A stretch of 58,167 bases of DNA from Candidatus Hydrogenedentota bacterium (lineage in GTDB: Bacteria > Hydrogenedentota > Hydrogenedentia > Hydrogenedentales > SLHB01): the NCBI GenBank assembly GCA_963745075.1, contig CAVUWV010000004.1, positions 1-58,167 of the forward strand, read 5' to 3'. Made by a program: the position numbers and the translations under genes. Shown one piece after another: positions 1 to 15,795 of this stretch; the first letter of the stretch is position 1, and the number at the start of each line of letters is the position of its first letter. The notes beneath the pieces were generated by a model, which saw only the letters and a list, made by a program, of their open reading frames with translations, did not search any database and was not told the origin of the DNA.

Positions 1-752
1 TAACATCGCCGGGCTCGATTGCCCAGTAGTATAGGGTTTTGATGGCTACTCGCACGTCGCTGTTCGTGTACTTGGCCGTGAGCGCTGCAATTTTGTTTAG
101 CACACCGTTGTCCGTTCGGCGTAATCCCAATTCGCCGTTGTTCCAATATGGTCACCAGTTCCTCGGCCGTATAGGGCCGAAAGAATCGCCTCGGGCTGAA
201 GGGTGCTTTGAATGCTTTCATCCAGTGTCGTTGCCCAGCGCGGATTGTTGCTGAGAAGTACCGCCATGTATCCGGCGGGAGAACGGCTAAGGTAGATACA
301 CAGGATCTCCTTGGTTTTATCCTTTTCCGAGAGTAAATCCACTTCATCCAAAATCACCGCCATCTTCCCCGGGTATTTCGCTTCGAATCGCTCAACGAGC
401 TCAGAGAATGAAAGGCCGCGCGGGAACGCCCAAGAAATGTGCCAGCAGGCGAGTGCTGGTGTTGTGGAGCCGGCAATTGCCGTACAGTACGTTTAAACCG
501 CGCTCCTGGAATAGCCCGGCGAGATACCGGAGGCTCAGTGTCTTGCCGCTTCCCCTGCTTCCCACGATCAGCATGTGGTTCGCAATATGGGTCCGATCAT
601 ATCGGAGAAGGGCGTCGATTACGGGCTTGAGCTCATTCCGGAAAAGCGGGTGGGAGGGGAGGTAATTGAAGTCAAAAACGCGCAGATTCGGATTCGTTTG
701 AATCCCGTCTTAGCCGGTACTCCTTATCCCGGAGATAGTGTTCGATGTCCAT
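1..752 (-). CDS. Cdc6/Orc1-like AAA+ ATPase, frameshifted and truncated at the window edge
   Basis: Manual minus-strand translation across several 1-bp shifts gives MDIEHYLRDK..LRVFDFNYLPSHPLFRNELKPVIDALLRYDRTHIANHMLIVGSRGSGKT (Walker A, 539-562)..YGNC..MAVILDEVD (Walker B)..LLSNN..STLQPEAI..FGPYTAEELVTILEQR. This matches the Cdc6/Orc1 motif order. Confidence 0.7.
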
Positions 753-800
753 ACGCGTAAACCTCGCTGCACGGTCAAAGTGAAGCAGGTTTAAAAAGGT

Positions 801-1844
801 TTACGCTCTTCCCCTCTCACATAGCCATTCTGCCGTATTCGAATCGGTGATCAGGTAGTTCACGAATCGATGCTCCAATGCCACGCGAATCGCCTCCACC
901 TTATCCTCACCGCCAGCCACGGCGATGACTTTTCGTTGGGACCTAACGAGTCTCTGCAGATGGTCAATTTCTATGCCGTCCACGAAATAAGACAAGCGGG
1001 GTATTTTTCCGGAAACATCCATCCCTAGTGGATTGTAGGGTCTGTTACACTTCCCCAATTACGTGTTGTTTCTTGAGCTCCTCCGATCGAATGCCATGGC
1101 GCTCCAAAATCTTGATGTATGAACCAGCGTTCGGTCCAGACCTGCATGAACCGATCCCAACTATGGCCACGTGGAGATTTGCGGTACGTCTTTCGATCGT
1201 CTGACGGCAAAGCGCGTATGATGCGCCCAATCTGAATCCTTTCTCAGAGTTTCGGGGAGCGGTTGCACCGCGAAAACGGTGGCATCCTCGCCTTGTGCTC
1301 CAGTTTCCCCTGCTAACCATTTGGCGGCAAGCATTCCAACCAGACAGAATGGGGACTGGTCTATGAGCTGATCAACCTCCGTCTCGACGGTCAACTTCGT
1401 GATCTGATTCCCAGACCACCGATTTGGCGAGAGAGCAAGTATGATGTCGCGAATGGTCGCGCCGCAGCTAATGCCAACCCGACAACCGGGCTTGATTAAA
1501 CCGGATTCGCCCTCGATATGGCGCGCTGCTGAATCCGCTAGTTGCCTCCGGAAGCAGGAAGAATCCCGATCTCGCTTCGATGTAATTATCGGAAAGACCG
1601 CTGCGTCTATCAGGCGATATCGGTCTTGTAGTTGCACTTCTAACTGCTGTTCTCTAGGTAGCTGTATAATTACTTTTATGATGTTATTTTCTCGTGCTTC
1701 CCGGAGAAGACGGGACGCGGTGGCCTTGTTAATCTTCAGCTTTGCGCCAATCGCTTCAAGCGTGGGCGGGGCATCCGAGGCGAAGCGCATTTGCGCAACC
1801 AACGCAGCTAGGAGACGGCGATCTTTTGGCAATTTCTTTGGCAT
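801..1844 (-). CDS. SorC/DeoR(Bacillus)/LsrR-family sugar-binding transcriptional regulator, frameshifted
   Basis: N-terminal HTH (LEAIGAKLKINKATASRLLREARENNIIKVII), then VGISCGATI and ANLHVAIVGIGS, and C-terminal VIAVAGGEDKVEAIRVALEHRFVNYLITD. Split across ORFs 1161-1895, 1045-1320 and 801-1058. Confidence 0.85.
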
Positions 1845-2101
1845 AACGCAAGATCCTCGAGCAGCTTTAGTCCCGGTTTGTCTTCGCAAGTACAATTGCC
1901 CAAATGAAATCCAGTTTCTATTATAGCATTTATCGTCAGGAAATGTGATTTGTTGCTAAAATGTTTCCAGAACGAATACTAGCACGTATGAGCTGCAAGA
2001 GCGCGCTAAACTCAATGATTATAGTAAGCTGTCGTGGGTTACATGGTTTGTGACGTTTCGAGCGCAAATCGCCGAAGTGCTAGCGACAAACAGCAAATTC
2101 A

Positions 2102-2130
2102 TTGACAGTTCAGACATCGTGATTTATCAT
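2102..2130 (+). promoter_or_regulatory. Sigma70-type promoter
   Basis: TTGACA (2102-2107), 17-bp spacer, TATCAT (2125-2130); divergent from the SorC-like gene. Confidence 0.65.
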
Positions 2131-2876: not shown

Positions 2877-3724
2877 ATGACAAGGAATCACGATGATGAA
2901 GATGGGAGGCGGAGCAAGAAGAAGCGGCGTCGGAAACGGTGCTCGCGTCCCAGAGGGCGGAAGGGAAAGCCACCCCCTAAATTGACCGAGGAAGAGCGCG
3001 CTCGCGTGTGTGAGCTTCTGCAGAATTTTGAAAAAGACCCTCGCCCTATCTTGGAGTACGGAGAGAGCGTGCTGAATAGAGACCGCCGTCGATTCTTGCT
3101 CATCAAACAGGACAAAAAGGACATTCTAGCCAAGTATGCCTGGCGGGTCAGTAAATACAAGCCGAGATTCTTGGAAGCCCAGAACCCTTGGGCATACATG
3201 AAAACGACGGTTCGCCATTGCGTGTATGACCACGTGCGCCGGCGCAAGTTCAAGGTTAACGTCACATTTCGGCCGCGCGCACGAATCAAGTCCTTGATCA
3301 AAAATCTGCGTCTCAACGGTGCAGAGATCAAGGAAAAGACGCCTAAGGGGGAAAGAAACGAAGCTTCAAAATGTGGGTCACTGCGGGCCAGGCTGCGGAT
3401 CTGCGCGATGATCCACGGGTCGAGTCATTAACGGTAGAGTTTGACGGCCGTTATAACGAACCCATCGATCCCGACAATGACGTGCCGGACCCGGATCAAC
3501 CACATTTGCACTGGCAACGACACCACGACGTGGATGCTGCGTTCGCGGAACTTAAACGAGAACTGCCAAAGCCGGCGCGGGTTCTTGAGCTCCGCTTTCT
3601 GCAGGGTAAGGGATGGAGGGAAGTCGCCAAAGAAATGGGTCTGTCAATTCGACAGTGTCAAAACCTCCTTCGCAGGGCCATTAAGTTTCTGAAGGAGAGG
3701 TTTCCGGAATTGGGCGAGTACTAG
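2877..3724 (+). CDS. ECF-type sigma-70 factor with basic N-terminal extension and internal insert (frameshift at G-run 3347-3351)
   Basis: SD GGAGGA before ATG 2877. Region-2-like PWAYMKTTVRHCVYDHVRRR and region 4 ARVLELRFLQGKGWREVAKEMGLSIRQCQNLLRRAIKFLK. Adding one G to the G5 run joins ORFs 2862-3431 and 3371-3724. Confidence 0.75.
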
Positions 3725-5026: not shown

Positions 5027-5503
5027 ATGGATAAAGAACCTGCCGATCTCGCCGGCCGTCGCCTCGAACGCTTCATCCGGCGAGATCGCGTAATCGACGA
5101 GGAATTCGGCCACGAATTCTCTGCAGAAGTGGGCTCGGACAGTCTCGTGTCATTTGATGGCACCGTGGAAACCGTCGAGCATGCAACTCGCAAGTTATTG
5201 CCTTGTAATCATCTGTACCAGGTAGGCCAGTCGTTGGCCCAATGCGATGCTTGCAGCAAGGCCAAGAAAAGGCCCGTCTACGTCTGCAGAGACAGTTGCT
5301 CAATTGTGTGTCCGGTTACGGGCTCGGTCCTATGTTTACGTTGTTCCCGTCTTGGACCTGATGGCCGCCGGTACAGCCCCGATGGTTTGAAACAAGCAAA
5401 GAAGATGGGGCTGTTCGAGCCGCACTCCTCGCGCGGAACTTCGTTGCCCTCAATAAATACGCGGTGCCGCGGCCTACTGTCGTGGCTTCTGAACTGGTGG
5501 TAG
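5027..5503 (+). CDS. Cys-rich putative Zn-finger protein
   Basis: ATG 5027 after GGGAGA. Clusters CNH, CDAC, CRDSC, CPVTG, CLRC. First gene of a tightly spaced operon. Confidence 0.6.
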   Translation: MDKEPADLAGRRLERFIRRDRVIDEEFGHEFSAEVGSDSLVSFDGTVETVEHATRKLLPCNHLYQVGQSLAQCDACSKAKKRPVYVCRDSCSIVCPVTGSVLCLRCSRLGPDGRRYSPDGLKQAKKMGLFEPHSSRGTSLPSINTRCRGLLSWLLNWW

Positions 5504-5508
5504 TAGAC

Positions 5509-6834
5509 ATGTTCCGCGTTTTAGGCATGCCCCCGCAATCCCGCCCAAACGTAGGCGAACTTCGCCGTAAGGTGACCCAGGAACTGGGTGTCGGCCCGTC
5601 CGATCCCATATACAAGGATCTGGAACTCCTCGAAGCACACTGGAATGACCGCTTGTATGCCCACGTAAAGCGTGCGCTGGATAACCGTATGGCGGCCCGC
5701 AACGCGATACCCCGCGTTGGCGACCGCATACCGGCACCCGAGACGTTGATTGGCGAACTCCTCATTGCGATCTTCGTGACCCTGACCGGTAACCCCGCAC
5801 CCGTATGTATCTCGCCGGACCGGTTGGTATTACACACGCTAGTCGCTGGCCTTCCAGGCATGGGAAAGACGTTCTTTTGCCGTCTACTGCTGACCATGAT
5901 CGCGGCAGCGTGTCCCCACGTGCGAATCCTTATCTTCGACCCCAATCGCTCTTACGAGACACTCTGTAGCGACCCATGGATTTGGCTCTCGGTACCGTGG
6001 GATGGCATCAAACTTGGCCCTTTTGTCCCCCCACCGGGTTATCCGCTTGATCGCTGGATCTCGGAGAAGGTGGACCAATTCTGCCGTGGTGAGTTGATGG
6101 CCAGCCGATACCTCTTTGCCCGACGCCTTGACGAACTCATTGCCGAGGCGCGCATGCGCGCGGATCCTTCCGGGGCATTTGTTTATCCCGCATTTGATGA
6201 CGTACGGGAGAATCTAACCCGCAAAAGATGCCCATCCTGGAGCCCGGAAGAACGGTACCGGCAAAGCCTTTTGAATGTCCTCGATGGCCGTATACGAACT
6301 TCGGGTTCTGTCTACAATTGCTCCACCGGTATGGAATCGCTCCTGACCGACACTCGTGCTCGTATTTCCACGGATGGCCTGGCACCGCTGCAAAGTCTGG
6401 AGTTCCTGGTCACCCACCTTATTCATTACGCATGTCGCCGTCGTGCCGTTCAGCCATTGGTCGAGCCACCACAATTGCATACGCTCATCGTCATCGAGGA
6501 AGCCCAGACGCTGCTTCAGAAACACGGGGACAATATCGCGTACTACCAAGAATTGCTGCTAAAAGCCCGGGCACTGGGTGTTGGATTCATATTCGTTTGC
6601 CAGGACATCAGCCGCATCGATCCGATTGTCTTGGCAGCATGTTCTAACCTCTTTGTCTTCGGGCAAGCCAGCGCCGACGACAAGCACACATGCCAAAAGC
6701 CATTGGACCTCTCTCCCCGCGAAACCGCCTTGCTCAGTGAACTCAACGTCGGCGAGGTGTTTATTCGTCTTATTGGGCACCCGACCTTCCCCTGGCCCTT
6801 CCTTGCGAGGATTCCCGATGTCCGGCTTACCTGA
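5509..6834 (+). CDS. HerA/FtsK/VirD4-superfamily P-loop ATPase (DUF87-like)
   Basis: Walker A HTLVAGLPGMGKT, then ILIFDPNRSY, Walker B LIVIEEAQ, and arginine-finger/Q motif KARALGVGFIFVCQ. Confidence 0.85.
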   Translation: MFRVLGMPPQSRPNVGELRRKVTQELGVGPSDPIYKDLELLEAHWNDRLYAHVKRALDNRMAARNAIPRVGDRIPAPETLIGELLIAIFVTLTGNPAPVCISPDRLVLHTLVAGLPGMGKTFFCRLLLTMIAAACPHVRILIFDPNRSYETLCSDPWIWLSVPWDGIKLGPFVPPPGYPLDRWISEKVDQFCRGELMASRYLFARRLDELIAEARMRADPSGAFVYPAFDDVRENLTRKRCPSWSPEERYRQSLLNVLDGRIRTSGSVYNCSTGMESLLTDTRARISTDGLAPLQSLEFLVTHLIHYACRRRAVQPLVEPPQLHTLIVIEEAQTLLQKHGDNIAYYQELLLKARALGVGFIFVCQDISRIDPIVLAACSNLFVFGQASADDKHTCQKPLDLSPRETALLSELNVGEVFIRLIGHPTFPWPFLARIPDVRLT

Positions 6835-7574
6835 AGACAGCATCCGCATTCCTTCATTCGAGGATTTGCAGGGGCTTGTGGTGCCCCTTACACCGCTCGA
6901 GCCACCCCCAGCACCCATGCCACGCGATACGCCAAAACGGGTACGTCCCACGGCACACGGACCTTTGCGCGAGGAGTTCCTGAGGCCGGATGCGGAACGT
7001 TTTCTTCGCCACGCCGCCGAGCCTCACCATCGATGGATGACCTTGGGCGAACGGTGGGCCGAACTCGGCATACCGTCCGGAAGCGTGCAGAAACGCATTC
7101 TCGACGATCTTCGGCGCCAAGGCCTGATCCGGTTGGAGCGTAAAGGCAGGGCGTATCAGGTCCATCTGTACAAGAAGGCGTATGAGCATCTTGGGACTCC
7201 CCCCGCCCAAGGGAGAAGGCGTCGGGGGCACCAGCCACGTACTCGCGGTAAAGCAAATGACGACCGTGCTCAAACGGCGCGGATATGAGGTCCATATAGA
7301 GCGACAGGTCGGCAGAAGCAAGAAGCGCGTGGACATCGTCGCCTACGGAAAGGATCGGATTATCGGATGCGAAGTCGGCCTCAGTGACGTACGCCAGGAG
7401 TTAAAGAATCTTCGCGAAGACCTCGAGGCCGGGGTTCTTGATCTGCTGCTCTTCGTGACGACGGACAAGGCCTTGCTGGAGAAGGTTAAGAGGCTCGCCG
7501 CGAAAGACCCGGTCGTGAGCAAACACCTGCATCGGGTCAAGTTCTATTTGCTTGACGAGGAAACCGAATCATGA
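6818..7574 (+). CDS. Winged-helix + PD-(D/E)XK-like nuclease (Replic_Relax-like), frameshifted near 7195; probably the C-terminus of the ATPase
   Basis: wHTH-like KRILDDLRRQGLIRLERKGRAYQVHLYKKAYEHLG, then in the next frame SHVLAVKQMTTVLKRRGYEVHIERQV..RVDIVAY..IGCEVG. Confidence 0.65.
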
Positions 7575-7802
7575 AGAAGAACGTCGGGCGTCCTGCGACG
7601 CGTCGCCATTCTCGCCGCCTTTGCATGGGCCTATGACCACTTTGTCATCAACGGAAGTCTTTTCTTATGGAATCCAGCGATTCGGGAGTCCCTGAAATGG
7701 CTGCTCTATGCAGCCGTTGCATGGGGAATCGTCACGCTTTTTGCCGATCGCATTGGACAGGACACGAACCCGAGGGAGGATAACAACAATGAGCCAAAGT
7801 GA
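7571..7802 (+). CDS. Small two-TM membrane protein (~76 aa), absent from the ORF track because of a 1-bp shift near 7587
   Basis: ATGA overlap with the upstream stop. Corrected translation MKKNVGVLRRVAILAAFAWAYDHFVINGSLFLWNPAIRESLKWLLYAAVAWGIVTLFADRIGQDTNPREDNNNEPK; its stop overlaps the PP2C start. Confidence 0.6.
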
Positions 7803-8706
7803 AACGAATCCCGCCGTGATGGAACCACCGGCGGCCGCACCTGCTGGTGAGGACTACACGCCGCGCGTCCTTTATTCATGCCGATCAATCTCAGGAAAGC
7901 GGGAGTCCAATCAGGACGTGGCGCTGATTGCGCAGATTGTCAGCCAAGACGGCGCCCCGGTCACGGCCGCAGTGGCATGCGATGGCATGGGCGGGCATAA
8001 AGCGGGCGAACAGGCATCGCATCTGGCCGCGCACGACAGTCTGGCGATGCTGATGTCCAAACTGCTTGGGTGTCCTCTTGAGGATCTCGACCGGGAGTTG
8101 CCCGCACTGCTTTTGGAGGCTTTCCAAAGCGCCAACATCGCGGTAATGACCGATGCCGCGAAGAACCCAGCCTGCCGCGATATGGGAACGACGATGGTGA
8201 TGGCGGTACTTGTGGGTACCACGTTGTACGTCGCCAACGTTGGGGACAGCCGAGCCTACCAATACCATGAGGAGACCCTTGAACCGCTCACGCGTGACGA
8301 CAGCTTTGTCCGACTCCTTATCGACCTGGGGCAGATTTCCGCCGAGGAGGCGGAAAACCACCCTCGCGCCAATGAAATCATCCGGTGCATCGGCTCCGTC
8401 GACGCCCTGGACGATTTCGGTGTCACGATTCATTCCCTTGAGGCGGGCGACTGCATCATCTTGTGCTCGGACGGCCTTTGGAAGTACGGCGAGGAGGACA
8501 TCCCCGCTACGTGCTCGTGGTTGTCCGCGCAGCCGTTTACTCCCGCCAGTCTCAATCAGGCGACCAAGAACCTGACAGACCAAGCCCTGGCGCGGGGTTC
8601 AGATGACAACATCTCGGTCGTCCTGATTTGGCTCGAACCCACATCGACGGAACCGTTGTATGAGGTATCGGACAACTCGGATCCAACATCCCTGAAGGAG
8701 AACTAA
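7789..8706 (+). CDS. PP2C/PPM-family Ser/Thr protein phosphatase
   Basis: Motifs RESNQD, VACDGMGGH, MGTT, NVGDSRAY, LCSDGL and GSDDNISVV; SD GGAGGA upstream. Confidence 0.95.
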   Translation: MSQSETNPAVMEPPAAAPAGEDYTPRVLYSCRSISGKRESNQDVALIAQIVSQDGAPVTAAVACDGMGGHKAGEQASHLAAHDSLAMLMSKLLGCPLEDLDRELPALLLEAFQSANIAVMTDAAKNPACRDMGTTMVMAVLVGTTLYVANVGDSRAYQYHEETLEPLTRDDSFVRLLIDLGQISAEEAENHPRANEIIRCIGSVDALDDFGVTIHSLEAGDCIILCSDGLWKYGEEDIPATCSWLSAQPFTPASLNQATKNLTDQALARGSDDNISVVLIWLEPTSTEPLYEVSDNSDPTSLKEN

Positions 8707-8708
8707 CC

Positions 8709-9263
8709 ATGGCAAGCGGAAAGTGTCACGATTGCGGCGCCTCATTCGGCAAGGGCGCAAAGTTCTGCAAAAAGTGCGGTGTCAACTTAGTCAAGGAAGA
8801 TCCTGCAGACAGCAGCACTGAAGTCCTGACCGACGCCGCCCTCGATGAACTCGAGGAGACCCCGTGTAAACCCGACACGTCCGAATCCGAAGCATCTGAC
8901 CTTTACGTGGTTACGGAAGCGCACGGCGATCTCTTTGAGGATGCGGTAGCCGCTCCGCCGGAAAAACCTCGCGGCGGCAGCGTCACTATGACTGTGCGCA
9001 ACGGATTGGCGGCTGGCCGGACCCTCCGTATTCCTGAAGGTGCCAAACTCGTTGTTGGCGCCGGCGCCGACGCCGACCTCACGCTTAACGATGAACGCGT
9101 TTCGCGCAAGCACTTGGCGCTGCGCGTGGACGGTGGAAAGCTTCTGGCTGAGGACCTTGGCAGCACCAACGGCACCTTTCTCGCCGTCACGACTCCGCGC
9201 GAACTTTACCCCGACGATGTCATCGTTCTTGGTAGCACCCTGCTGCAGGTGGGAAAGGAGTGA
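8709..9263 (+). CDS. Zinc-ribbon + FHA domain protein
   Basis: N-terminal CHDCG..AKFCKKCG, acidic linker, FHA motifs VSRKHL and DLGSTNGTF. Confidence 0.9.
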   Translation: MASGKCHDCGASFGKGAKFCKKCGVNLVKEDPADSSTEVLTDAALDELEETPCKPDTSESEASDLYVVTEAHGDLFEDAVAAPPEKPRGGSVTMTVRNGLAAGRTLRIPEGAKLVVGAGADADLTLNDERVSRKHLALRVDGGKLLAEDLGSTNGTFLAVTTPRELYPDDVIVLGSTLLQVGKE

Positions 9264-9271
9264 TCCCAATC

Positions 9272-10473
9272 ATGGCTGTTCGTCTTACACCGGGAAGCAC
9301 CATAGGCTCTACACAATTCACAGACACGTCAGCAAGGGCGGCGAGGGGGATGTGTACAGAGGCCGTTCGCGTCGACGGCAGACCCGTGGCGCTGAAGCAA
9401 TTGAACTTCAGCGCCTCGGACCCGCGCAACAAAGAATCTGCTCGAACGTGCATTGCGGCTCAAACGGCTCATTGGCATACGTTCTCCCTTCGTGTGCGAA
9501 GTATATGACGTCTTCATTCACGATGACCTCGTATACATCGTGATGGAATGGGTGACAGGCCTGTCCCTTGAGACAGGTGCTGGCGGAAAGTAGGCCTCTC
9601 TCCTATGGACTGGCTCGTACCCATTATGCGTGACGTGCTCGTGGGACTCGGTTGGCTGCACGATTTGGACATCGTTCACCGGGATGTGAAGCCAGCCAAC
9701 ATCATTGTGGTCGGAGGCAAATCGGAGATCCGGGCAAAACTCGTGGACCATGGGATTATGCTGGATCGGGGACCCCCGCCTCACATGCAAGGGCGGCATT
9801 ATTGGAACCCCCGAATACATTGCGCCGGAGATGGTAAGATGATCTGGGCGTGGAAGACGAGGTGGACGGCCGGGCCGACCTCTATTGTGTCGGGACGACG
9901 CTCTTCGAATTGCTCACAGGAACGTTACCGTTTCCGGAACCGGGATGCCCCATCCGCCGCACATTCGTGGAACGCCTTTTTGCGCCGGAGCGACCCTCGG
10001 TACGCGACTACGTCGAAAAGATTCCGGAGCCATGGACCGGTATATCCAGCGTCTGATGAGCCTGAGTCCCGATGACCGGCCTTCGACCGCTGCGGAAGCG
10101 TGGGAGGAACTGCAGTGGGCGGTAGACGAATCCGGAGAGACCGTGCCACCACCGGATAGCCCCGTCCGTCGGCCCGTTCACGAAGTCCGATGCTGCCGTA
10201 CCATGCCTCACCGTCCAATCCGGCCCGCTGGCGGGAACGGCCATTTCCGTTCCCATAAGCGGCCTTACCCTCGGCCGGGCGGCGTTGAACCCCGAGGACA
10301 CGCGTATTTCCCGCTTCCATATCCGGGTCCGGCCGACAAAACGTGGGCTTGTTGTGCGCGACCAGCGCTCCTTAAACGGTCTTATCTATCGGGGTAAGCG
10401 ATTGAGGCGTGCAGTGCTGCCACCAGGAGAATCCCTCTTGGTGGGGGAAACAACTGTTCGGTTCAGCGAATAA
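9272..10473 (+). CDS. Hanks-type Ser/Thr kinase with C-terminal FHA domain (many frameshifts)
   Basis: Pieces across frames: [31 protein letters not shown] (~9677), [37 protein letters not shown]. The FHA reads [18 protein letters not shown]. Confidence 0.85.
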
Positions 10474-10492
10474 CCAATAAGGGGTAACCATT

Positions 10493-11242
10493 ATGGCGAC
10501 TCAAAGACATTCCAACACGCGGCGCGAGACCGTAAGAGCCGCGTATCCCTCCATCTCAAAGTCCCAGGCGCCCCGTTCCCAAACCCCGGTCCGGATTGCA
10601 TTCGTCATCCTACTCGATGCCACCGGATCAATGGCGACTGCGATCGAGGCGGTGATAAGAGCCCTGCGTCGCATGGTCGATGTCTTCATGACGTCGCAGG
10701 TCATTCCCACGCTGGGGCTCGTCGTCTTCCGCGACGAGACATACGGTGAGCGTCCAATCGTGCTCCCGTTGGGAACCAGTGCAGAGGAGATATGCGAATT
10801 GCTGAAGACTACCGAAGCCTACGGCGGAGAGGACGCTCCCGAGTCATCCCTGCTCGCGGTGATGCGCGCCCTGGACCAGTTGCAACGCGCCGAGCCCGGA
10901 GCAAAGAAGATCATCCTGCTCATCACGGACGCACCGCCTCACGATCCGGAAAGAAGCGACATCGGAAATCTCGTAACGGCTGAGGTTGTCCGGGAGGCAC
11001 TGACCGACCAGCAGGTTCTATTCTTCGCCTGCACGCCCACAATCGAGCCATACAAGAGCTTTGCAAACCTGACCGGCGGTACGCTCTTCCCGCTACAGAA
11101 GGACATGGACGAGGATACGTTCAAAGACCTGCTGGTAGACGTGGCGCACCAGACGGTGAAAACGGTTCGGCATTCGGGACCGGTCATTACCGATGAAGCG
11201 CTCGCCTTGATGAAAAATCTGGACACAAGGGAACGACAATGA
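10493..11242 (+). CDS. von Willebrand factor A (vWA) domain protein
   Basis: MIDAS-like ILLDATGSM, GGEDAPES, IILLITDAPPHD. Confidence 0.9.
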   Translation: MATQRHSNTRRETVRAAYPSISKSQAPRSQTPVRIAFVILLDATGSMATAIEAVIRALRRMVDVFMTSQVIPTLGLVVFRDETYGERPIVLPLGTSAEEICELLKTTEAYGGEDAPESSLLAVMRALDQLQRAEPGAKKIILLITDAPPHDPERSDIGNLVTAEVVREALTDQQVLFFACTPTIEPYKSFANLTGGTLFPLQKDMDEDTFKDLLVDVAHQTVKTVRHSGPVITDEALALMKNLDTRERQ

Positions 11243-12694
11243 GGCAGCGGCGTCTATGCTTATGGTGTTTCACCCGCTTCAAACCGTCGAAGCAGTGCTG
11301 CCCAAAATGCGCAAAGGCGATCATTCGGCGCATTGGGGACCGCTTTGATGTCCTGTCTTGCATCGCGCTCCACGAAGACCAGGCTTCGCTTCGGTGCTGG
11401 GATCGAATAAACCACCGGGAGGTGTTCGTTCGTGTCGCGCGTTCGGACGCTTCCCCAAGTACTGTCGGCGCCATGACCACAGAGGCAATTGTTCTGCGGC
11501 AACTCGCGGGCGAGCCCGGAGTCCCGGCGTTTGTGCATGCGGGAAAACTGCGCGAGACAGACGCCGTGTATACGGTACAGGAGTTCGTGACTGGAGTACC
11601 CCTGGAAAAGGCGCTGAGGAAAGTTTGCCCAGCGACACGCGCGGAAATTCTTCTGGACGCGATTGCGCCAGTCGCGGCCCTGCATCGCCAGGGTTTTGTG
11701 CACTGCGCCATTTCGCTCCATCATTCTCTCCTGACACCCGACGGACAGGTGGTCTTGCTGGATTTCCGCCAGGCACGGCGCGAGGGCCAGCCATCCGCAG
11801 GAACAGGCGTTACCGGATATGCCGCCCCGGAGCAGTGGAATCCCATGCGGCTGGTCACGCCTGCCACGGACGTCTTCGCGTTGGGCGTGTGTCTGTACGT
11901 TGCGCTCGCGCATCACTGGCCCTATGGCAAACGAAAGACCAACAGCGCACGCGCCAGGACGGCGCCGCCCCGGAAACCGTCCGAGCTTTGCCCTAACATC
12001 ACTACCGACCTCGATGACGTCATCCTGCGCGCCCTCGCATTTGAACCGGAGAGGCGATACACCTCCTTGGATGAATTCCGCCGTGCACTCATGACTTCGT
12101 TTGGACCGGACACAGTCCCGGACGCTTTTGATTGCACCTTTCCGTCTCGCTGGCAGGGCGCCATGGCAGCCGTGGGACGGACAGCGTATCGCGCGGCGCG
12201 GGGTATGTTGATTGGTGCTTTGTGGACTGTGCGAACGGTAGGAGAGCCGCTCCCGCCGTGGCACGGTGGGCGTTGAGCCATCCCGGAATGGCACTTGTGG
12301 GCACCGTCGCTGCTGGAGTCGCGCTATTGCCGCTGGTACTGCGTCCTGAGGGCGATACATTGAGGCCGGAGTCCGCACGGAACTCGCACCGAGAGCGCGA
12401 TCGTGTCCGCCGCGTTTCGCGACGACGTCGCAGCGACTTCGACTCCGCCTTCCGCCAGCATCCTGCGAGTACTCACCTGGCCCCCGGCGAAAGTCTATTG
12501 CGACGGGGAGTTACTTACCGAGGCTCCCAGCCCCGAGACATTTGCAATGCCAACTGGAGAACAAAGGATTCTCTTGGTATCCACGCGCGGTGAGCAGCGG
12601 CAACTTACATTCACGACCCAACCGAGCCGTAAATATGTGACTCGAGTATAACTTCGACACCAACGAGCTGAACGTGGAGGAGCGAGCGCCATGA
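11239..12694 (+). CDS. Zn-ribbon + Ser/Thr pseudokinase + TM + PEGA-like domain (frameshifts near 12240, 12390 and 12645)
   Basis: CLWC..CPKC; kinase C-lobe GYAAPEQ, DVFALGV, AFEPERRY but degenerate catalytic motifs. Downstream frames give TM MALVGTVAAGVALLPLVL and PEGA-like LRVLTWPPAKVYCDGELL. A probable stop overlaps the next ATG (ATGA 12691-12694). Confidence 0.75.
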
Positions 12695-13644
12695 AACAGT
12701 CATCCAAACATGCAATCCTCCTGATTCTGATCGCGATTGGGGTGGGTTGCGCGACGTACGATATTCCATACGCGCATCTGCTCCCGGGGTGTGTAGCGAA
12801 GAATACGGCTGTGCAAGCAACTGCCAGTCCATCCCCGGCCGTCCGGGTAGCAGCACCGAGCGCAACGGTGACACAGCCACAAAAAGACCCTGGAAATCAT
12901 GTATCTCGTGGTAACGCGATACCACCCCATCCCGCAGTCGAGGTTAAACCCTTGGCGTCACCGCCGGTTCGGCGATCCTTCGAACGAGACCCCACAGATC
13001 TCGACAGAGAACGGCCCAAGACACCGAACGATCATGTTACTGATGCCCGGCGCATCTTCGAATCGGGAAATCGAGAAGACCCTCACGCGCAATCGGCGGA
13101 AGCGATTCCGATACGGCCTACTATCCAATCTCCCGCAAAGGACATTCCGTACTGGGCCGGCCACGAAGAAAAACCGGACGATGACTTGGCAAGTACCGGA
13201 TCAGGGGATGGGCCGCATCATGCGCGATTATCCGAAGGGCCTGCGTTGGTTACGTGGCCAAGCCCCGCTCTGCTGCCTCCCGTCGTGAACGAAATGTGGC
13301 GTTTGTATCGGGAGTTTGAGTTCGAGCCGGTGATCGAGTCGGCAATGGAATTCGCAGCTCGGGAGACATCGCACGGGTACTCGCTCGCCACGGCGTACAT
13401 GCTGGCAGCGGCATCGGCTCATCTCATAGGAGACTCGACTCGCGCGCGGCAATTCTTGGCTTTGTCGTGGGCCGTAGATCCCGGCGTGCTTCCGGACCCG
13501 AAAGTTTTTCCCGGCACGTTTTGCAGGCTGCACGGTTCAGTAAGTCGACAACATTCTTCTGAGGTGTCCACCTCGAGAGGATTCGAGCTATCGATGAATG
13601 TCCTTGACCGGTGCGGTGATCCAGGGCATCTTGCGGAACGCTGA
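12691..13644 (+). CDS. Lipoprotein with Pro-rich linker and C-terminal TPR-like helical domain
   Basis: Signal peptide with lipobox MKQSSKHAILLILIAIGVG-C; C-terminus AYMLAAASAHLIGDSTRARQFLALSWAVDPGVLPDPKVFP. Confidence 0.7.
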   Translation: MKQSSKHAILLILIAIGVGCATYDIPYAHLLPGCVAKNTAVQATASPSPAVRVAAPSATVTQPQKDPGNHVSRGNAIPPHPAVEVKPLASPPVRRSFERDPTDLDRERPKTPNDHVTDARRIFESGNREDPHAQSAEAIPIRPTIQSPAKDIPYWAGHEEKPDDDLASTGSGDGPHHARLSEGPALVTWPSPALLPPVVNEMWRLYREFEFEPVIESAMEFAARETSHGYSLATAYMLAAASAHLIGDSTRARQFLALSWAVDPGVLPDPKVFPGTFCRLHGSVSRQHSSEVSTSRGFELSMNVLDRCGDPGHLAER

Positions 13645-13663
13645 CAAACTGGAGATGGAAGAA

Positions 13664-13864
13664 ATGGAATTGATGACGCGCAAGGAAGCGGCCGAGAAGC
13701 TGAGGATCGGCGTGCGCACCCTGGACCGGCGGCTCGCAAGCGGTGAATTGAAGTGCTATCGCTTGGGGGATGGGTCGCGCGCCCCCGTCCGGATTTCCGA
13801 GGAACAACTGCGCGCATATCTGGACGATGGTGCCTGCACAATCCGGGGAAAAGCTGGTCCTTAG
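13664..13864 (+). CDS. Excisionase-like HTH_17 DNA-binding protein
   Basis: LMTRKEAAEKLRIGVRTLDRRLASGELKCYRLG..VRISEEQLRAYL; SD GGAG at 13651. Confidence 0.85.
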   Translation: MELMTRKEAAEKLRIGVRTLDRRLASGELKCYRLGDGSRAPVRISEEQLRAYLDDGACTIRGKAGP

Positions 13865-13919
13865 TATTGCAGTGCGATGTCAAGGCCAACGCGCCCCACG
13901 CATGAAAGGCTTTCCAACA

Positions 13920-14168
13920 ATGCATACCGTCAGGAACGAGAACTCGGAGGACCACGGCGACGCCTTGGCCCAGTACCTGTCGCCCCGGGATCTGGCGATG
14001 CGCTGGAGCTGTTCACGGACCTCCGCGCAACGCATCGCCGAGCGGGCGGGCTTCGCCCGGTATCTCCTCGGGCGGGGACGCAACGGCATGGTGCGCTACG
14101 CCCTGGCGGAGATCGAAGCCTACGAACGCGAGAATCGTTTCGGCGCACCTGGAACGGCCCGTCGTTGA
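13920..14168 (+). CDS. Second excisionase/AlpA-like HTH protein
   Basis: YLSPRDLAMRWSCSRTSAQRIA..GMVRYALAEIEAYE; convergent with the integrase. Confidence 0.7.
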   Translation: MHTVRNENSEDHGDALAQYLSPRDLAMRWSCSRTSAQRIAERAGFARYLLGRGRNGMVRYALAEIEAYERENRFGAPGTARR

Positions 14169-14241
14169 GTCGTTCCAGAACGAGCACCCCGGCCGGATTG
14201 TGGACGCGGCAAGTCCCCGGCCGGGGCGCTCCTTTTCCATG

Positions 14242-15480
14242 CTACTCCGCGATGCGCTCACCGTCGCTCGCAATGAGACGCAAACGCGGCCGGTCCGCGG
14301 CGGGGGCTGTGGCCGGGGGCGGTGTGTTCGTTTCCTCCGCGTCGAATTCCACGCTCTGCAGCAGCGACTCTGGCAAGAGCGTCGCATAGTGACGACGGCA
14401 TATCTCCGGGGAGTTGCCCATGAGCGCGGAAATCTTGTAGAGGCTTTCGCCCTTCATGGCGAGATGGCTCCCGAACGAGTGGCGGTAGTCGAGGCAGGTC
14501 CACACCAGGTCCTTGGACTGGTTGAAGTCCCGCAACCACGCGGAGAGATTGTCCGGATCCCAACGGCAGCCCTTCAGACTGGGAAAGTACCAGGGCGACG
14601 CTGAGTCGGGCCGCCGGTACCGGTCTAGGTAGCCGCGCAGGACCTTGCTGATCGGCACGATGCGGTTGACCTTGGTCTTGGGTTCCCAGGCCTCGCCGTT
14701 GACCTCCTTGGCCCGGATCCGGAGAACGCCGTGAATCCCGGCGGTGAGGTCCACGTCCTCCAGCGTGAGCCAGAGGGCCTCTTCACGCCGCAAACCCGCG
14801 TAGATGTAGACCGCGACCATCGCTTGCAGAAGCGGGCGTTCTTCCAGCGCCGCCAGTTGCCGTTCGATCTGCTCCCGGGTCAAGAAGCGGATGCGGGGCG
14901 CCCGCTCGCGGTACCGCTGCACCAGGGCGGCGGGGTTGCGGCCGCCGGGCATGCGCACGCCGTACTCCTGCATGGCCCAGTTAAAGAGCCGCTGGAGCAC
15001 TTCGCGATGCCGGTTGGCGGTCTTCGGCGCCAGGCGGTACCGGGCGACCCGTTCCGTGATGAAGGCGGAAATGTGGGCCGGCGTGATCTGCTCGAGGTGA
15101 TCGGCGCGCAGGAAGGGTTCCCGCTTCCGGGCGTCCACGTCGATCCGGAGACGCTTCGTGCAGCGGCGCCCGTTCTCTAGGGCGGGGCAGATGGGCCCGA
15201 AGATGCGGCGCAGATACGACAGGTCCGCATCGACGCCGTGCTTGGTTTTGCGCGCGCGCATGTAATAGATGTAGGTGGCGACGGCCTTGGGCAGCGGCGT
15301 CTGGGTGGGCAGCGGATTGTCCTCGCCCCGGACCCGGGCCGAGTCGAAGACGCGCTGCTTCTCCTTGGCGACCTGTACGTCCTCGGTGCCGAGACTGAGG
15401 CGCTGGCGCACGCCGTTCTCGAAATAGTGGAGGTAGTACGTGCGTCCGCGTTTCTTCAGATACGAATTGAGGCTGGCCAT
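14242..15480 (-). CDS. Tyrosine recombinase / phage-type integrase
   Basis: Arm-binding N-terminus (KRGRTYYLHYFENGVRQRLSLGT); catalytic YAGLRREE, PKT, DYRHSFGSHL, LMGNS, RHYA; SD AAGGAG; adjacent to the tRNA. Confidence 0.95.
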   Translation of the reverse strand: MASLNSYLKKRGRTYYLHYFENGVRQRLSLGTEDVQVAKEKQRVFDSARVRGEDNPLPTQTPLPKAVATYIYYMRARKTKHGVDADLSYLRRIFGPICPALENGRRCTKRLRIDVDARKREPFLRADHLEQITPAHISAFITERVARYRLAPKTANRHREVLQRLFNWAMQEYGVRMPGGRNPAALVQRYRERAPRIRFLTREQIERQLAALEERPLLQAMVAVYIYAGLRREEALWLTLEDVDLTAGIHGVLRIRAKEVNGEAWEPKTKVNRIVPISKVLRGYLDRYRRPDSASPWYFPSLKGCRWDPDNLSAWLRDFNQSKDLVWTCLDYRHSFGSHLAMKGESLYKISALMGNSPEICRRHYATLLPESLLQSVEFDAEETNTPPPATAPAADRPRLRLIASDGERIAE

Positions 15481-15638
15481 ACCCATGCTCCTTTTCGGTG
15501 GCGTGGTTGGCGGCAAGTCCCAATCGGATAGACCGGCGCGGACGCGGCGATGCGCACGGGCACGACCGCGGGGGAGCGCTCTTTTTGCGATCCGGGAGGC
15601 GTTACAAGTCCACATGGGGAACATGTTTACCGAAAAAA

Positions 15639-15718: not shown

Positions 15719-15795
<77 letters not shown>

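Follow-up and report, generated by a model that had tools for sequence, protein, structure and literature searches.

What is achieved by a tightly packed run of ten genes in which an ATPase and a nuclease are joined to a protein kinase, a phosphatase and envelope proteins, all on a mobile element of a Candidatus Hydrogenedentota bacterium? The window analysed here is the entire contig CAVUWV010000004.1 (58,167 nucleotides; assembly GCA_963745075.1), named C4 within the host genome G000, which comprises 6.8 Mb in 36 contigs and is 90% complete. The operon lies entirely on the forward strand and encodes, in order, a zinc (Zn) finger protein, an ATPase, a wHTH-nuclease (wHTH, winged helix-turn-helix), a small transmembrane (TM) protein, a PP2C phosphatase, a Zn ribbon-FHA protein, a kinase-FHA protein, a vWA protein, a pseudokinase-TM-PEGA-like protein and a lipoprotein (Table 1). 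An earlier, sequence-only reading of this DNA had counted nine genes. Pfam matches and a reading of the junctions bear out the co-orientation and tight packing of the parts, with ATGA overlaps at 7571, 11239 and 12691 and short gaps or overlaps of at most about 20 nt at the remaining junctions, but the ATPase (5509-6834) and the wHTH-nuclease (6818-7574) are separate open reading frames (ORFs), which brings the number to ten. The operon is apparently a real, conserved and undescribed system made of known parts on a family of integrated elements: as the sequence-only reading supposed, no named system matches it in full in the profile libraries or the literature searched, and the architecture was not found in the full texts covered, which were mostly open-access papers, main texts without supplements. 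Carried on a mobile element, it probably serves either to control how that element spreads or to protect the cell from DNA that enters it.

The order of the genes is kept at 26-75% protein identity in other genomes, and is thus conserved far beyond chance. A search for synteny, which the sequence-only reading had proposed, finds all ten genes intact and in the same order in three loci (L001, L003 and L004). Among the 18 loci L001-L018, the wHTH-nuclease and TM genes directly follow the ATPase gene in 10 and a Zn finger gene precedes it in 11; eight loci extend further, and PP2C comes next in seven of these, L010 being without it. The remaining loci end inside or just past the ATPase gene, except for L006, a deletion derivative, and L015, in which an ATPase fragment lies beside unrelated genes. 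Some loci are near copies of one another (L008/L009/L017; L005/L011/L012), so that the independent cases are fewer. The operon is rare, and every genome in which it has been seen is uncultured. Of 135 genomes of the phylum, many of them incomplete, 10 hold a close orthologue of the ATPase (E under 1e-50) and 10 hold the lipoprotein.

The core of the system consists of the sigma factor encoded upstream, the Zn finger protein, a HerA/VirB4/DndH-like ATPase without a HAS barrel, and the wHTH-PD-(D/E)xK nuclease. In the ATPase, the Walker A and Walker B motifs, R354 and Q365 are invariant in 21 homologues. Its AlphaFold2 (AF2) model (pLDDT 95) places three helices, formed by the N-terminal 66 residues, where HerA has the HAS barrel. 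The closest matches in fold, by VIA Z, are DndH-C (31.4; root mean square deviation 3.6, 339 aligned), VirB4 (29.8), HerA (28.7) and TrwB (26.0), and as modelled the fold by itself cannot tell defence from transfer. Among PADLOC profiles the best match is Mad8 of MADS (E 1.7e-19), and HerA is matched too; members of the family also match CedD, at up to E 5e-23 and under the cut-off, a protein that the accessible text of PMC11868833 describes as an archaeal DNA-import ATPase. In one protein of 872 aa (P0026) a general-type ATPase is fused to a kinase-type ATPase, which hints that the two paralogues work together, and in another (P0152) a Cys-rich region and a hydrophobic stretch stand ahead of the ATPase.

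In the window and in L001, L003 and L004 the ATPase and the wHTH-nuclease are separate, overlapping ORFs, and fusion of the two is confined to remoter relatives; fused forms of this kind account for the match of the nuclease profile to 67 of the 145 ATPase representatives listed. At E under 1e-10 there are 752 representatives of the ATPase. An AF2 model of the L001 wHTH-nuclease (pLDDT 86) contains a MarR-like wHTH at residues 42-127 (Z about 10) and a nuclease domain at 133-250, for which the matches include AF1548 (Z 11.1) and a P. abyssi repair endonuclease (9.9). Foldseek gave no match under E 0.001 for this protein, and no relaxase structure is among its listed fold matches, which excludes nothing. 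Nuclease activity is likely, judging from the residues H139, E160 and D171, which are invariant in 23 sequences, although E184-x-G/A replaces E-x-K. The Zn finger protein has no Pfam match; Atlas offers a weak IBR-like lead at 0.84.

Control modules on this core are interchangeable and comprise kinase/PP2C/FHA, GrpE/Hsp70 or JAB/E1 proteins. The vWA protein, the TM-PEGA-like protein and the lipoprotein are common to the kinase type and one Hsp70 type. In L058, L057 and L100 these three, the TM-PEGA-like protein being without a pseudokinase, are accompanied by a Zn finger homologue and a fused ATPase-wHTH-nuclease; in L058 (8865-16981) and L100 (7323-15779), both at tRNA-Val, genes for sigma factor, GrpE and Hsp70 lie upstream instead of PP2C, FHA and kinases. 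The sequence-only reading missed that the phospho module is not core, as these sister elements, which carry GrpE/Hsp70 with otherwise shared proteins, make plain. A further locus at tRNA-Met (L139) encodes a sigma-like protein, Zn finger, ATPase, nuclease, TM protein, GrpE, Hsp70, vWA, HTH_17 and integrase, while in L140 (11915-17100) genes for Zn finger, ATPase and nuclease are followed by those for a small protein that looks ubiquitin-like, a second one of 151 aa, JAB, ThiF/E1 and HTH_17; the Zn finger homology is weak in both (hhalign probability 24 in L139 and 10 in L140). In the kinase-type locus L068, a protein encoded after the lipoprotein is a 41% relative of one of the two from L140, and at L068:76-1052 both small proteins of the L140 type lie 3' of the lipoprotein gene. 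For the 151-aa protein Atlas names no family; these small proteins of the JAB/E1 type may be 'E2-like' or 'ubiquitin-like', labels read from their context and without a family match. A J-domain considered for the Hsp70-type membrane protein was dropped, having no Pfam support. In a quick tree of 38 ATPase rows, the kinase-type ATPases form one clade (100) and three fused Hsp70-type ATPases another (100); the two clades join, together with two unplaced representatives, at 94, which is below the starred level, and the ATPases of L139 and L140 are long branches of unsure placement.

In the kinase-type operon, the motifs predict one active and one dead kinase, together with a phosphatase and a vWA protein whose motifs are intact, in agreement with the sequence-only reading. 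K42, H135, D137, K139, N142 and D158 of the kinase, a full catalytic set, are invariant in seven orthologues, and its match to Pkinase is canonical (E 1.7e-39). In the pseudokinase the catalytic Lys, HRD and DFG are all replaced. The metal-binding Asp motifs of PP2C can be read from the sequence, and the vWA protein, with an intact metal ion-dependent adhesion site (MIDAS), is 26% identical to E. coli YegL (hhalign probability 91). The free FHA protein is without the Arg of the G-R phosphothreonine motif in five copies (window, L001, L003, L004 and L054) and may therefore be a substrate or scaffold and not a reader; the FHA domain of the kinase itself keeps this Arg in most copies. That FHA adaptors would govern the effector or the sigma factor, as the sequence-only reading proposed, is conjectural.

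As for the envelope proteins, the pseudokinase is followed by a TM helix (L001, L003 and L004) and a small beta domain with weak similarity to PEGA, and this C-terminal domain aligns with that of the Hsp70-type TM protein. The PEGA label of the sequence-only reading is weakly supported: the kinase-type proteins have no Pfam match to PEGA, and the homologous domain of three Hsp70-type loci reaches E 0.03-0.08, under the cut-off. Similarly, the small membrane protein, earlier said to have two TM helices, has one clear hydrophobic helix by hydropathy and a second, weaker one (Pfam 2TM, weak at E 0.08). The lipoprotein matches no Pfam family; its lipobox Cys is intact.

The sequence-only reading took the operon to be island-borne, and a tRNA-Met site, a tyrosine integrase and a near-empty site in a related genome support this. 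Positions 1 to about 15,720 of the window are the right arm of an integrated element, the left arm being absent from the assembly. In G106, a 99% complete genome from this genus, what comes after that tRNA is a remnant of the integrase start, no more than a few hundred bases long, and then unrelated genes; the remnant is a single 549-bp match at 96%, tRNA included. Since this site is near-empty, the element is accessory. Its left arm was not found in the host genome, from whose contigs the C-terminus of Cdc6 is absent.

Table 1. Coordinates of the operon genes and of other features in the window, with the evidence for each
Feature	Positions	Strand	Evidence and remarks
Cys-rich Zn finger protein, C-terminal amphipathic LLxWW helix; core gene	5027..5503	+	Cys/His/Trp invariant in 10 homologues
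FtsK/HerA-superfamily ATPase, 441 aa; core gene	5509..6834	+	Pfam DUF87 E 1e-6
Winged helix and PD-(D/E)xK nuclease fold; core gene	6818..7574	+	One frameshift near 7193
Small membrane protein (1-2 TM)	7571..7802	+	Frameshift just past start; 73% to intact L003
PP2C phosphatase, Stp1/IreP type	7789..8706	+	Pfam PP2C E 4e-16; NF033484 E 4.5e-55, under cut-off
Double Zn ribbon (DZR), acidic linker, FHA	8709..9263	+	Pfam DZR plus FHA (1.7e-12)
PknB-type Ser/Thr kinase with C-terminal FHA	9271..10473	+	Pfam Pkinase plus FHA; 9 frameshifts; 80% to intact L003
Stand-alone vWA protein, no signal peptide	10493..11242	+	VWA_4 E 6.6e-13; intact MIDAS (DxTxS)
Zn ribbon, pseudokinase, TM helix, PEGA-like beta domain	11239..12694	+	Pkinase E 1.9e-14; 3 frameshifts
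Lipoprotein with lipobox (Cys20), a long linker rich in Pro and a helical C-terminal domain that is conserved	12691..13644	+	Cys20 invariant
HTH_17 excisionase-like gene	13655..13864	+	Pfam HTH_17 E 1e-8
Second HTH_17 gene	13917..14168	+	Followed by terminator-like hairpin at 14213-14227
Tyrosine integrase	14242..15486	-	Intact; 98-99% identical to L003 integrase
tRNA-Met(CAT)	15719..15795	-	Integration site; same site used in L003, L101, L139
Orc1/Cdc6-type AAA+ ATPase of element	1..760	-	Cut by contig end; 5 frameshifts
SorC/DeoR-like regulator (HTH and sugar-binding domain), in pieces	801..1895	-	Pfam Sugar-bind E 1.5e-4
Sigma-70-like promoter match, 11/12	2102..2130	+	Upstream of sigma gene; consensus match only (7 found, 4.0 expected)
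Extracytoplasmic function (ECF)-like sigma factor	2877..3724	+	One frameshift near 3370-3430; Sigma70_r4_2 E 5e-8; Sigma70_r2 weak
Insertion sequence at sigma stop codon	3722..4901	-	15-bp terminal inverted repeats, TA ends

Within the element the operon is placed between the sigma gene and the genes for excision and integration. The sigma-like gene holds the same place in L001, L002, L004, L054, L058 and L100. A co-oriented HTH_17 gene lies downstream of the operon in 10 of 13 loci and a convergent integrase gene in 7 of 13; of the three loci without HTH_17, two end at a contig edge and in L100 none was detected. In the window 10 nt lie between the lipoprotein stop codon and the first HTH_17 gene, without a terminator match, and the first clear hairpin comes after the second HTH_17 gene, although terminator matches overall are at chance level. 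A gene for an AEP primase-PriCT protein lies between lipoprotein and excisionase in L001, and one for a spore photoproduct lyase-like radical SAM protein between the operon and the excisionase-like gene in L053 (11171-12292).

The reading favoured here, with a probability of roughly 45%, is that the operon serves the mobilisation of a family of elements integrated at tRNA genes, is inducible and signal-gated, and works like TdtA of Thermus. According to the accessible text of PMC5365140, TdtA is a HerA-like ATPase encoded on the tRNA-inserted element ICETh1, and DNA donation also needs a restriction enzyme and NurA. The demonstrated part of this account comprises gene order, folds, catalytic motifs, the exchange of control modules and the way in which the operon is coupled to the excisionase and integrase genes; the later steps we infer. 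The fixed slot between the sigma gene and the excisionase and integrase genes fits mobilisation somewhat better than defence, because a transcript ending in excisionase genes is one that is turned on at the element's departure. ICETh1, which donates DNA with a HerA-like pump and a nuclease, is a precedent. Also on this side are VirB4 and TrwB among the fold matches of the ATPase, the matches of its family to CedD, the AEP primase gene of L001 and the islands of the wider ATPase family with their Orc1/Cdc6 genes.

In outline, the element's sigma factor would switch on a single transcript ending in the excisionase genes, so that excision and the DNA machine would be activated together. The wHTH-nuclease would bind DNA and nick or cut it, while the Zn finger and small TM proteins would hold the ring ATPase at the membrane, from where it would pump DNA out independently of any type IV secretion system, much as TdtA does together with NurA and a restriction enzyme. 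Contact or the state of the envelope could be sensed by the lipoprotein and the TM-PEGA-like protein. The pseudokinase, acting as a scaffold, would then pass the signal to the active kinase, with PP2C as the reset and with the FHA domain of the kinase and the vWA protein assembling the complex; gated by kinase, PP2C, FHA and vWA in this way, the nuclease-pump would fire only upon a signal, its timing or location being set by the switch and the envelope proteins. Sister elements would gate it equally through GrpE/Hsp70 or through JAB/E1 ubiquitin-like proteins.

Several observations weigh against mobilisation. The top structural match of the ATPase, DndH, is a defence ATPase, and its top PADLOC match is likewise to MADS. 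The ATPase has no TM helix, and nothing that could form a channel through a two-membrane envelope is apparent among the proteins. None of the 23 nuclease sequences matches a Replic_Relax/MOB-type family (E 0.1), and an alignment of 12 regions upstream of the Zn finger gene reveals no motif resembling an origin of transfer (oriT) beyond the ribosome site. No relative of the ATPase was found among the viral contigs searched, and the plasmids searched gave no close relative and one marginal match for the window ATPase. Many elements carry a second, general-type ATPase-nuclease, which could do the transfer and so leave the operon free for another job. A ComEC-family gene in the host genome is weak support for mobilisation, because ComEC is widespread, being present in 10 of 14 control genomes. 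The host genome has no match to the VirB4 family, within its 90% completeness, which counts for the favoured reading. The vWA protein has 10 scattered matches among plasmids.

A serious if less probable rival, close to the view of the sequence-only reading, is that the operon is an envelope-sensing defence by interception. The lipoprotein and TM-PEGA-like protein would detect phage adsorption or mating contact, and the phospho-switch would free the ATPase and wHTH-nuclease to capture and cut incoming DNA, or to kill the cell, protecting the element's host. The DndH C-domain as best fold match (Z 31.4) and the PADLOC matches to Mad8 and HerA speak for this, as does the combination of HerA/FtsK, wHTH, nuclease and Orc/Cdc6, a proposed 'capture' theme in the accessible text of PMC10853773 and PMC12839542. 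Moreover, vWA-PP2C-kinase triads accompany restriction systems, and modules resembling TerY-P act against phages (PMC10542128); GAP1-N2 conflict systems use kinase/PP2C/vWA and Hsp70/GrpE/DnaJ as alternatives to each other, according to PMC7159879; and STAND/NB-ARC-like, SNF2 and restriction-type genes adjoin several copies. The operon occupies a fixed backbone slot, however, and runs into the excisionase genes, unlike cargo, and it holds no methylase or immunity gene. The Orc1/Cdc6 protein is compact (368 aa), divergent and without the inserted inactive nuclease that defines capture systems, which are themselves only predictions. The defence proposed by the sequence-only reading stands as a rival, and the position of the operon is somewhat better explained by mobilisation.

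That the ATPase instead takes part in contact-dependent protein delivery, sending the nuclease or some other effector to cells nearby, is very improbable. It is suggested by the wider family's nearest relatives on plasmids, which are large ATPases; in two of the four regions opened, genes for an HNH nuclease and SMI1/KNR4 immunity come next. But these ATPases group with the general family and not with the kinase-type clade, and the nuclease here is conserved, bears a wHTH for binding DNA, often occurs fused to the ATPase and lacks both an immunity gene and a variable tip. The two plasmid regions (L117:3260-11659 and L120:5618-11580) each encode a large VirB4/HerA-like ATPase, then HNH nuclease and SMI1/KNR4, preceded in L117 by two dynamin-family genes, and look like an interbacterial toxin delivery unit. 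The vWA-lipoprotein-kinase pathway of type VI secretion systems was set aside because none of the loci read contains a gene of such a system.

A separate question, concerning this copy alone, is whether the window operon has recently decayed to a relic, whatever the function of the family. About 15 single-base frameshifts interrupt it (nine in the kinase, three in the pseudokinase, and one each in the wHTH-nuclease, the lipoprotein tail and the start of the TM gene), 14 of them obtained from a frameshift-aware alignment to intact relatives and the TM-gene event read separately. The density, some 15 in 8.6 kb of island as against two to three in about 10 kb of real flanking genes, argues for real damage (the flank as a whole has six events in 11 ORFs over 12.6 kb, of which four, in two ORFs resembling shadow frames, were discounted), as do the clustering of 9 of the 15 events in the kinase (binomial p 5e-5), the insertion sequence that parts the sigma gene from the operon, and the deletion derivative L006, by which decay does occur in the family. 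However, every event is an indel of one base, none of the ten genes contains a nonsense codon, and the ratio of non-synonymous to synonymous substitution rates relative to L003 is 0.14-0.49 across genes, with the kinase, at 0.21, like the unbroken ones. Cdc6, where the contig ends, also has a high density, with five further events in the same alignment. Four DNA runs yielded only short contig pieces, one of which, from run X3 at a depth of about 2, covers 7342-7598 with the TM-gene frameshift and has no substitutions and, somewhere along it, one gap relative to the window. Assembly errors are therefore the likelier cause, as read from the pattern of indels, codons and substitution rates, and a relic is improbable.

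The remainder of the element is less uniform. The window Orc1/Cdc6 protein is 86% identical to the intact 368-aa protein of L001, which matches TIGR02928 at E 5e-37, under the cut-off; both SorC-like pieces match a 347-aa L105 protein, at 44% and 57%. These two genes are divergent from the sigma gene, and the same pair is found in L105. The insertion sequence between sigma gene and operon, which we take to be IS630-like, has a 73% relative on contig C18 and is missing at this position in L001 and L004. In L004 (7616-9307) the sigma factor is apparently fused to an N-terminal SprT-like metallopeptidase. Variable cargo lies divergent from the sigma gene in L001 (2483-8561), L004 (1668-6557), L100 (16026-19901) and L055 (2298-5462), and includes a beta-propeller/M48/prenyltransferase-like giant protein, NB-ARC or NACHT-like ATPases and an SNF2 helicase. 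Contig C1 of the host genome bears three partial copies of the tRNA-Met 3' end (46642, 78349 and 83651), one of them beside integrase remnants; these are probably scars of other islands, and no link between them and the element's left arm could be made. Close to the same tRNA-Met in G106 (L133:12230-19900), a Tad-like cluster has its own kinase and FHA-like genes, as judged from ORF heads only.

Beyond the operon, the wider ATPase-wHTH-nuclease family is present in 27 of the 135 genomes of the phylum, on islands that carry Orc1/Cdc6, ArdC, MoxR-vWA and integrases, signalling genes being absent from most. In a number of these islands (L102-L108, L113, L114, L056 and L059) the fused ATPase-wHTH-nuclease adjoins a coiled-coil-like partner gene. 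Orc1/Cdc6 itself is present in 16 of the 135, and 11 of those 16 also hold the wider ATPase family, although kin among them are not independent cases.

Either mobilisation or defence would be new biology. If the former is true, type IV-independent DNA donation, of which there are few cases, such as Thermus TdtA, would extend to an Orc1/Cdc6 element family, and transfer would be seen to be gated by a receptor pseudokinase. A bolder and more doubtful proposal is that a new class of Orc1/Cdc6-bearing integrative elements spreads without type IV secretion by means of a receptor-licensed HerA-like pump and wHTH-nuclease, under three interchangeable eukaryote-style switches (phosphorylation with a pseudokinase receptor, Hsp70 and ubiquitin-like conjugation). 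If defence is true, the operon would provide a compact, testable example, with an envelope sensor, of HerA capture systems, which until now are purely predictions. In either case nature has exchanged phosphorylation, Hsp70 and ubiquitin-like modules on a single core, a clean experiment on the control of a nuclease-pump.

Among described systems, TerY-P was named as kin by the sequence-only reading, and it does resemble the operon in having a vWA protein, a PP2C-fold phosphatase and a Ser/Thr kinase in one operon with DNA-processing genes (PMC10542128, PMC11090510). With E. coli yegL-pphC-yegI as the reference, that kinship is not supported. PphC matches PP2C_2 (5.7e-52), whereas the phosphatase here scores higher with PP2C (4e-16) than with PP2C_2 (3e-13) and is of the Stp1/IreP type (4.5e-55); the TerY-P kinase ends in a Zn ribbon or OB fold, and YegI has no Pkinase match, whereas the kinase here is a canonical Pkinase ending in FHA; and the TerY-P order vWA-phosphatase-kinase is replaced by PP2C-FHA-kinase-vWA plus a pseudokinase receptor. 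The PADLOC TerY model does not match the vWA protein here, but the control fails too, YegL itself scoring only E 0.03. The operon would work like a TerY-P-style switch, yet fails two defining TerY-P features, the type of phosphatase and the fusion and order of the kinase. The operon DRA0331-0334 of Deinococcus radiodurans, with vWA, Ser/Thr kinase, FHA protein and PP2C, is likewise a push-pull phospho-switch (bioRxiv 10.64898/2026.01.23.701218), but the accessible text describes no ATPase-nuclease, pseudokinase, lipoprotein or mobile element, and there FHA is fused to the phosphatase, here to the kinase.

GAP1-N2 systems share kinase/PP2C/vWA and Hsp70/GrpE/DnaJ as alternative modules, as well as PEGA-domain membrane proteins; their core, by the accessible text (PMC7159879), is a double GTPase, GAP1 and FNIII proteins, and no GTPase or FNIII match is found in the operon. 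MADS, which has Mad6, Mad7 and Mad8 along with a methylase and a specificity subunit, combines a kinase with an ATPase, that of the operon matching the Mad8 profile as given above (bioRxiv 10.1101/2023.03.30.534895, accessible text), but the operon has no methylase, specificity subunit or Mad3/4/7 match, and the match of its kinase is generic (MAD6 NCBIfam 106 bits against a cut-off of 460). HerA-NurA, Sir2-HerA and HerA-DUF4297 have a HAS barrel and a NurA, Sir2 or DUF4297 partner, neither of which is in the operon.

Relaxases with a restriction-fold catalytic domain exist (MOB_C), as cited in the accessible text of PMC5365140. Their likeness to the operon, shared by Replic_Relax, consists in a restriction-fold domain with a wHTH beside a coupling-type ATPase. 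The MOB_C/Replic_Relax relaxase motif is D-x(6-17)-E-x-E, whereas the nuclease here has E-x-G/A; a crude pattern picks up E-x-E in 25 of the 88 longer relatives. The Orc/Cdc6 capture systems and DndH, in the accessible text of PMC10853773 and PMC12839542, resemble the operon in a DndH-like ATPase fold, a wHTH, a nuclease of the restriction fold and a mobile neighbourhood that includes an Orc/Cdc6 gene. Here, however, Orc/Cdc6 is divergent and not beside every copy, and there is no triple-wHTH protein; nor is there an inserted inactive nuclease in the L001 Cdc6, because its 368 aa, with the lid at 210-251 and the wHTH at 285-348, leave no room for one. As described there, capture systems are without kinase, chaperone and ubiquitin-like modules or envelope proteins.

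ICETh1, with TdtA, NurA and Tth111II, comes closest to the mobilisation favoured here (PMC5365140, accessible text). The operon differs from it in being without NurA, methylase and type IIG enzyme, its nuclease being a small wHTH-PD-(D/E)xK protein, and in adding a sigma factor, a Zn finger, envelope proteins and a post-translational switch. The two nevertheless share a HerA-like ATPase without a secretion system of its own, nuclease genes, insertion at a tRNA 3' end and a tyrosine integrase, and the layout here, an ATPase and a nuclease on a tRNA-inserted element with an integrase and, in the right arm, no type IV secretion genes, resembles that of the TdtA type.

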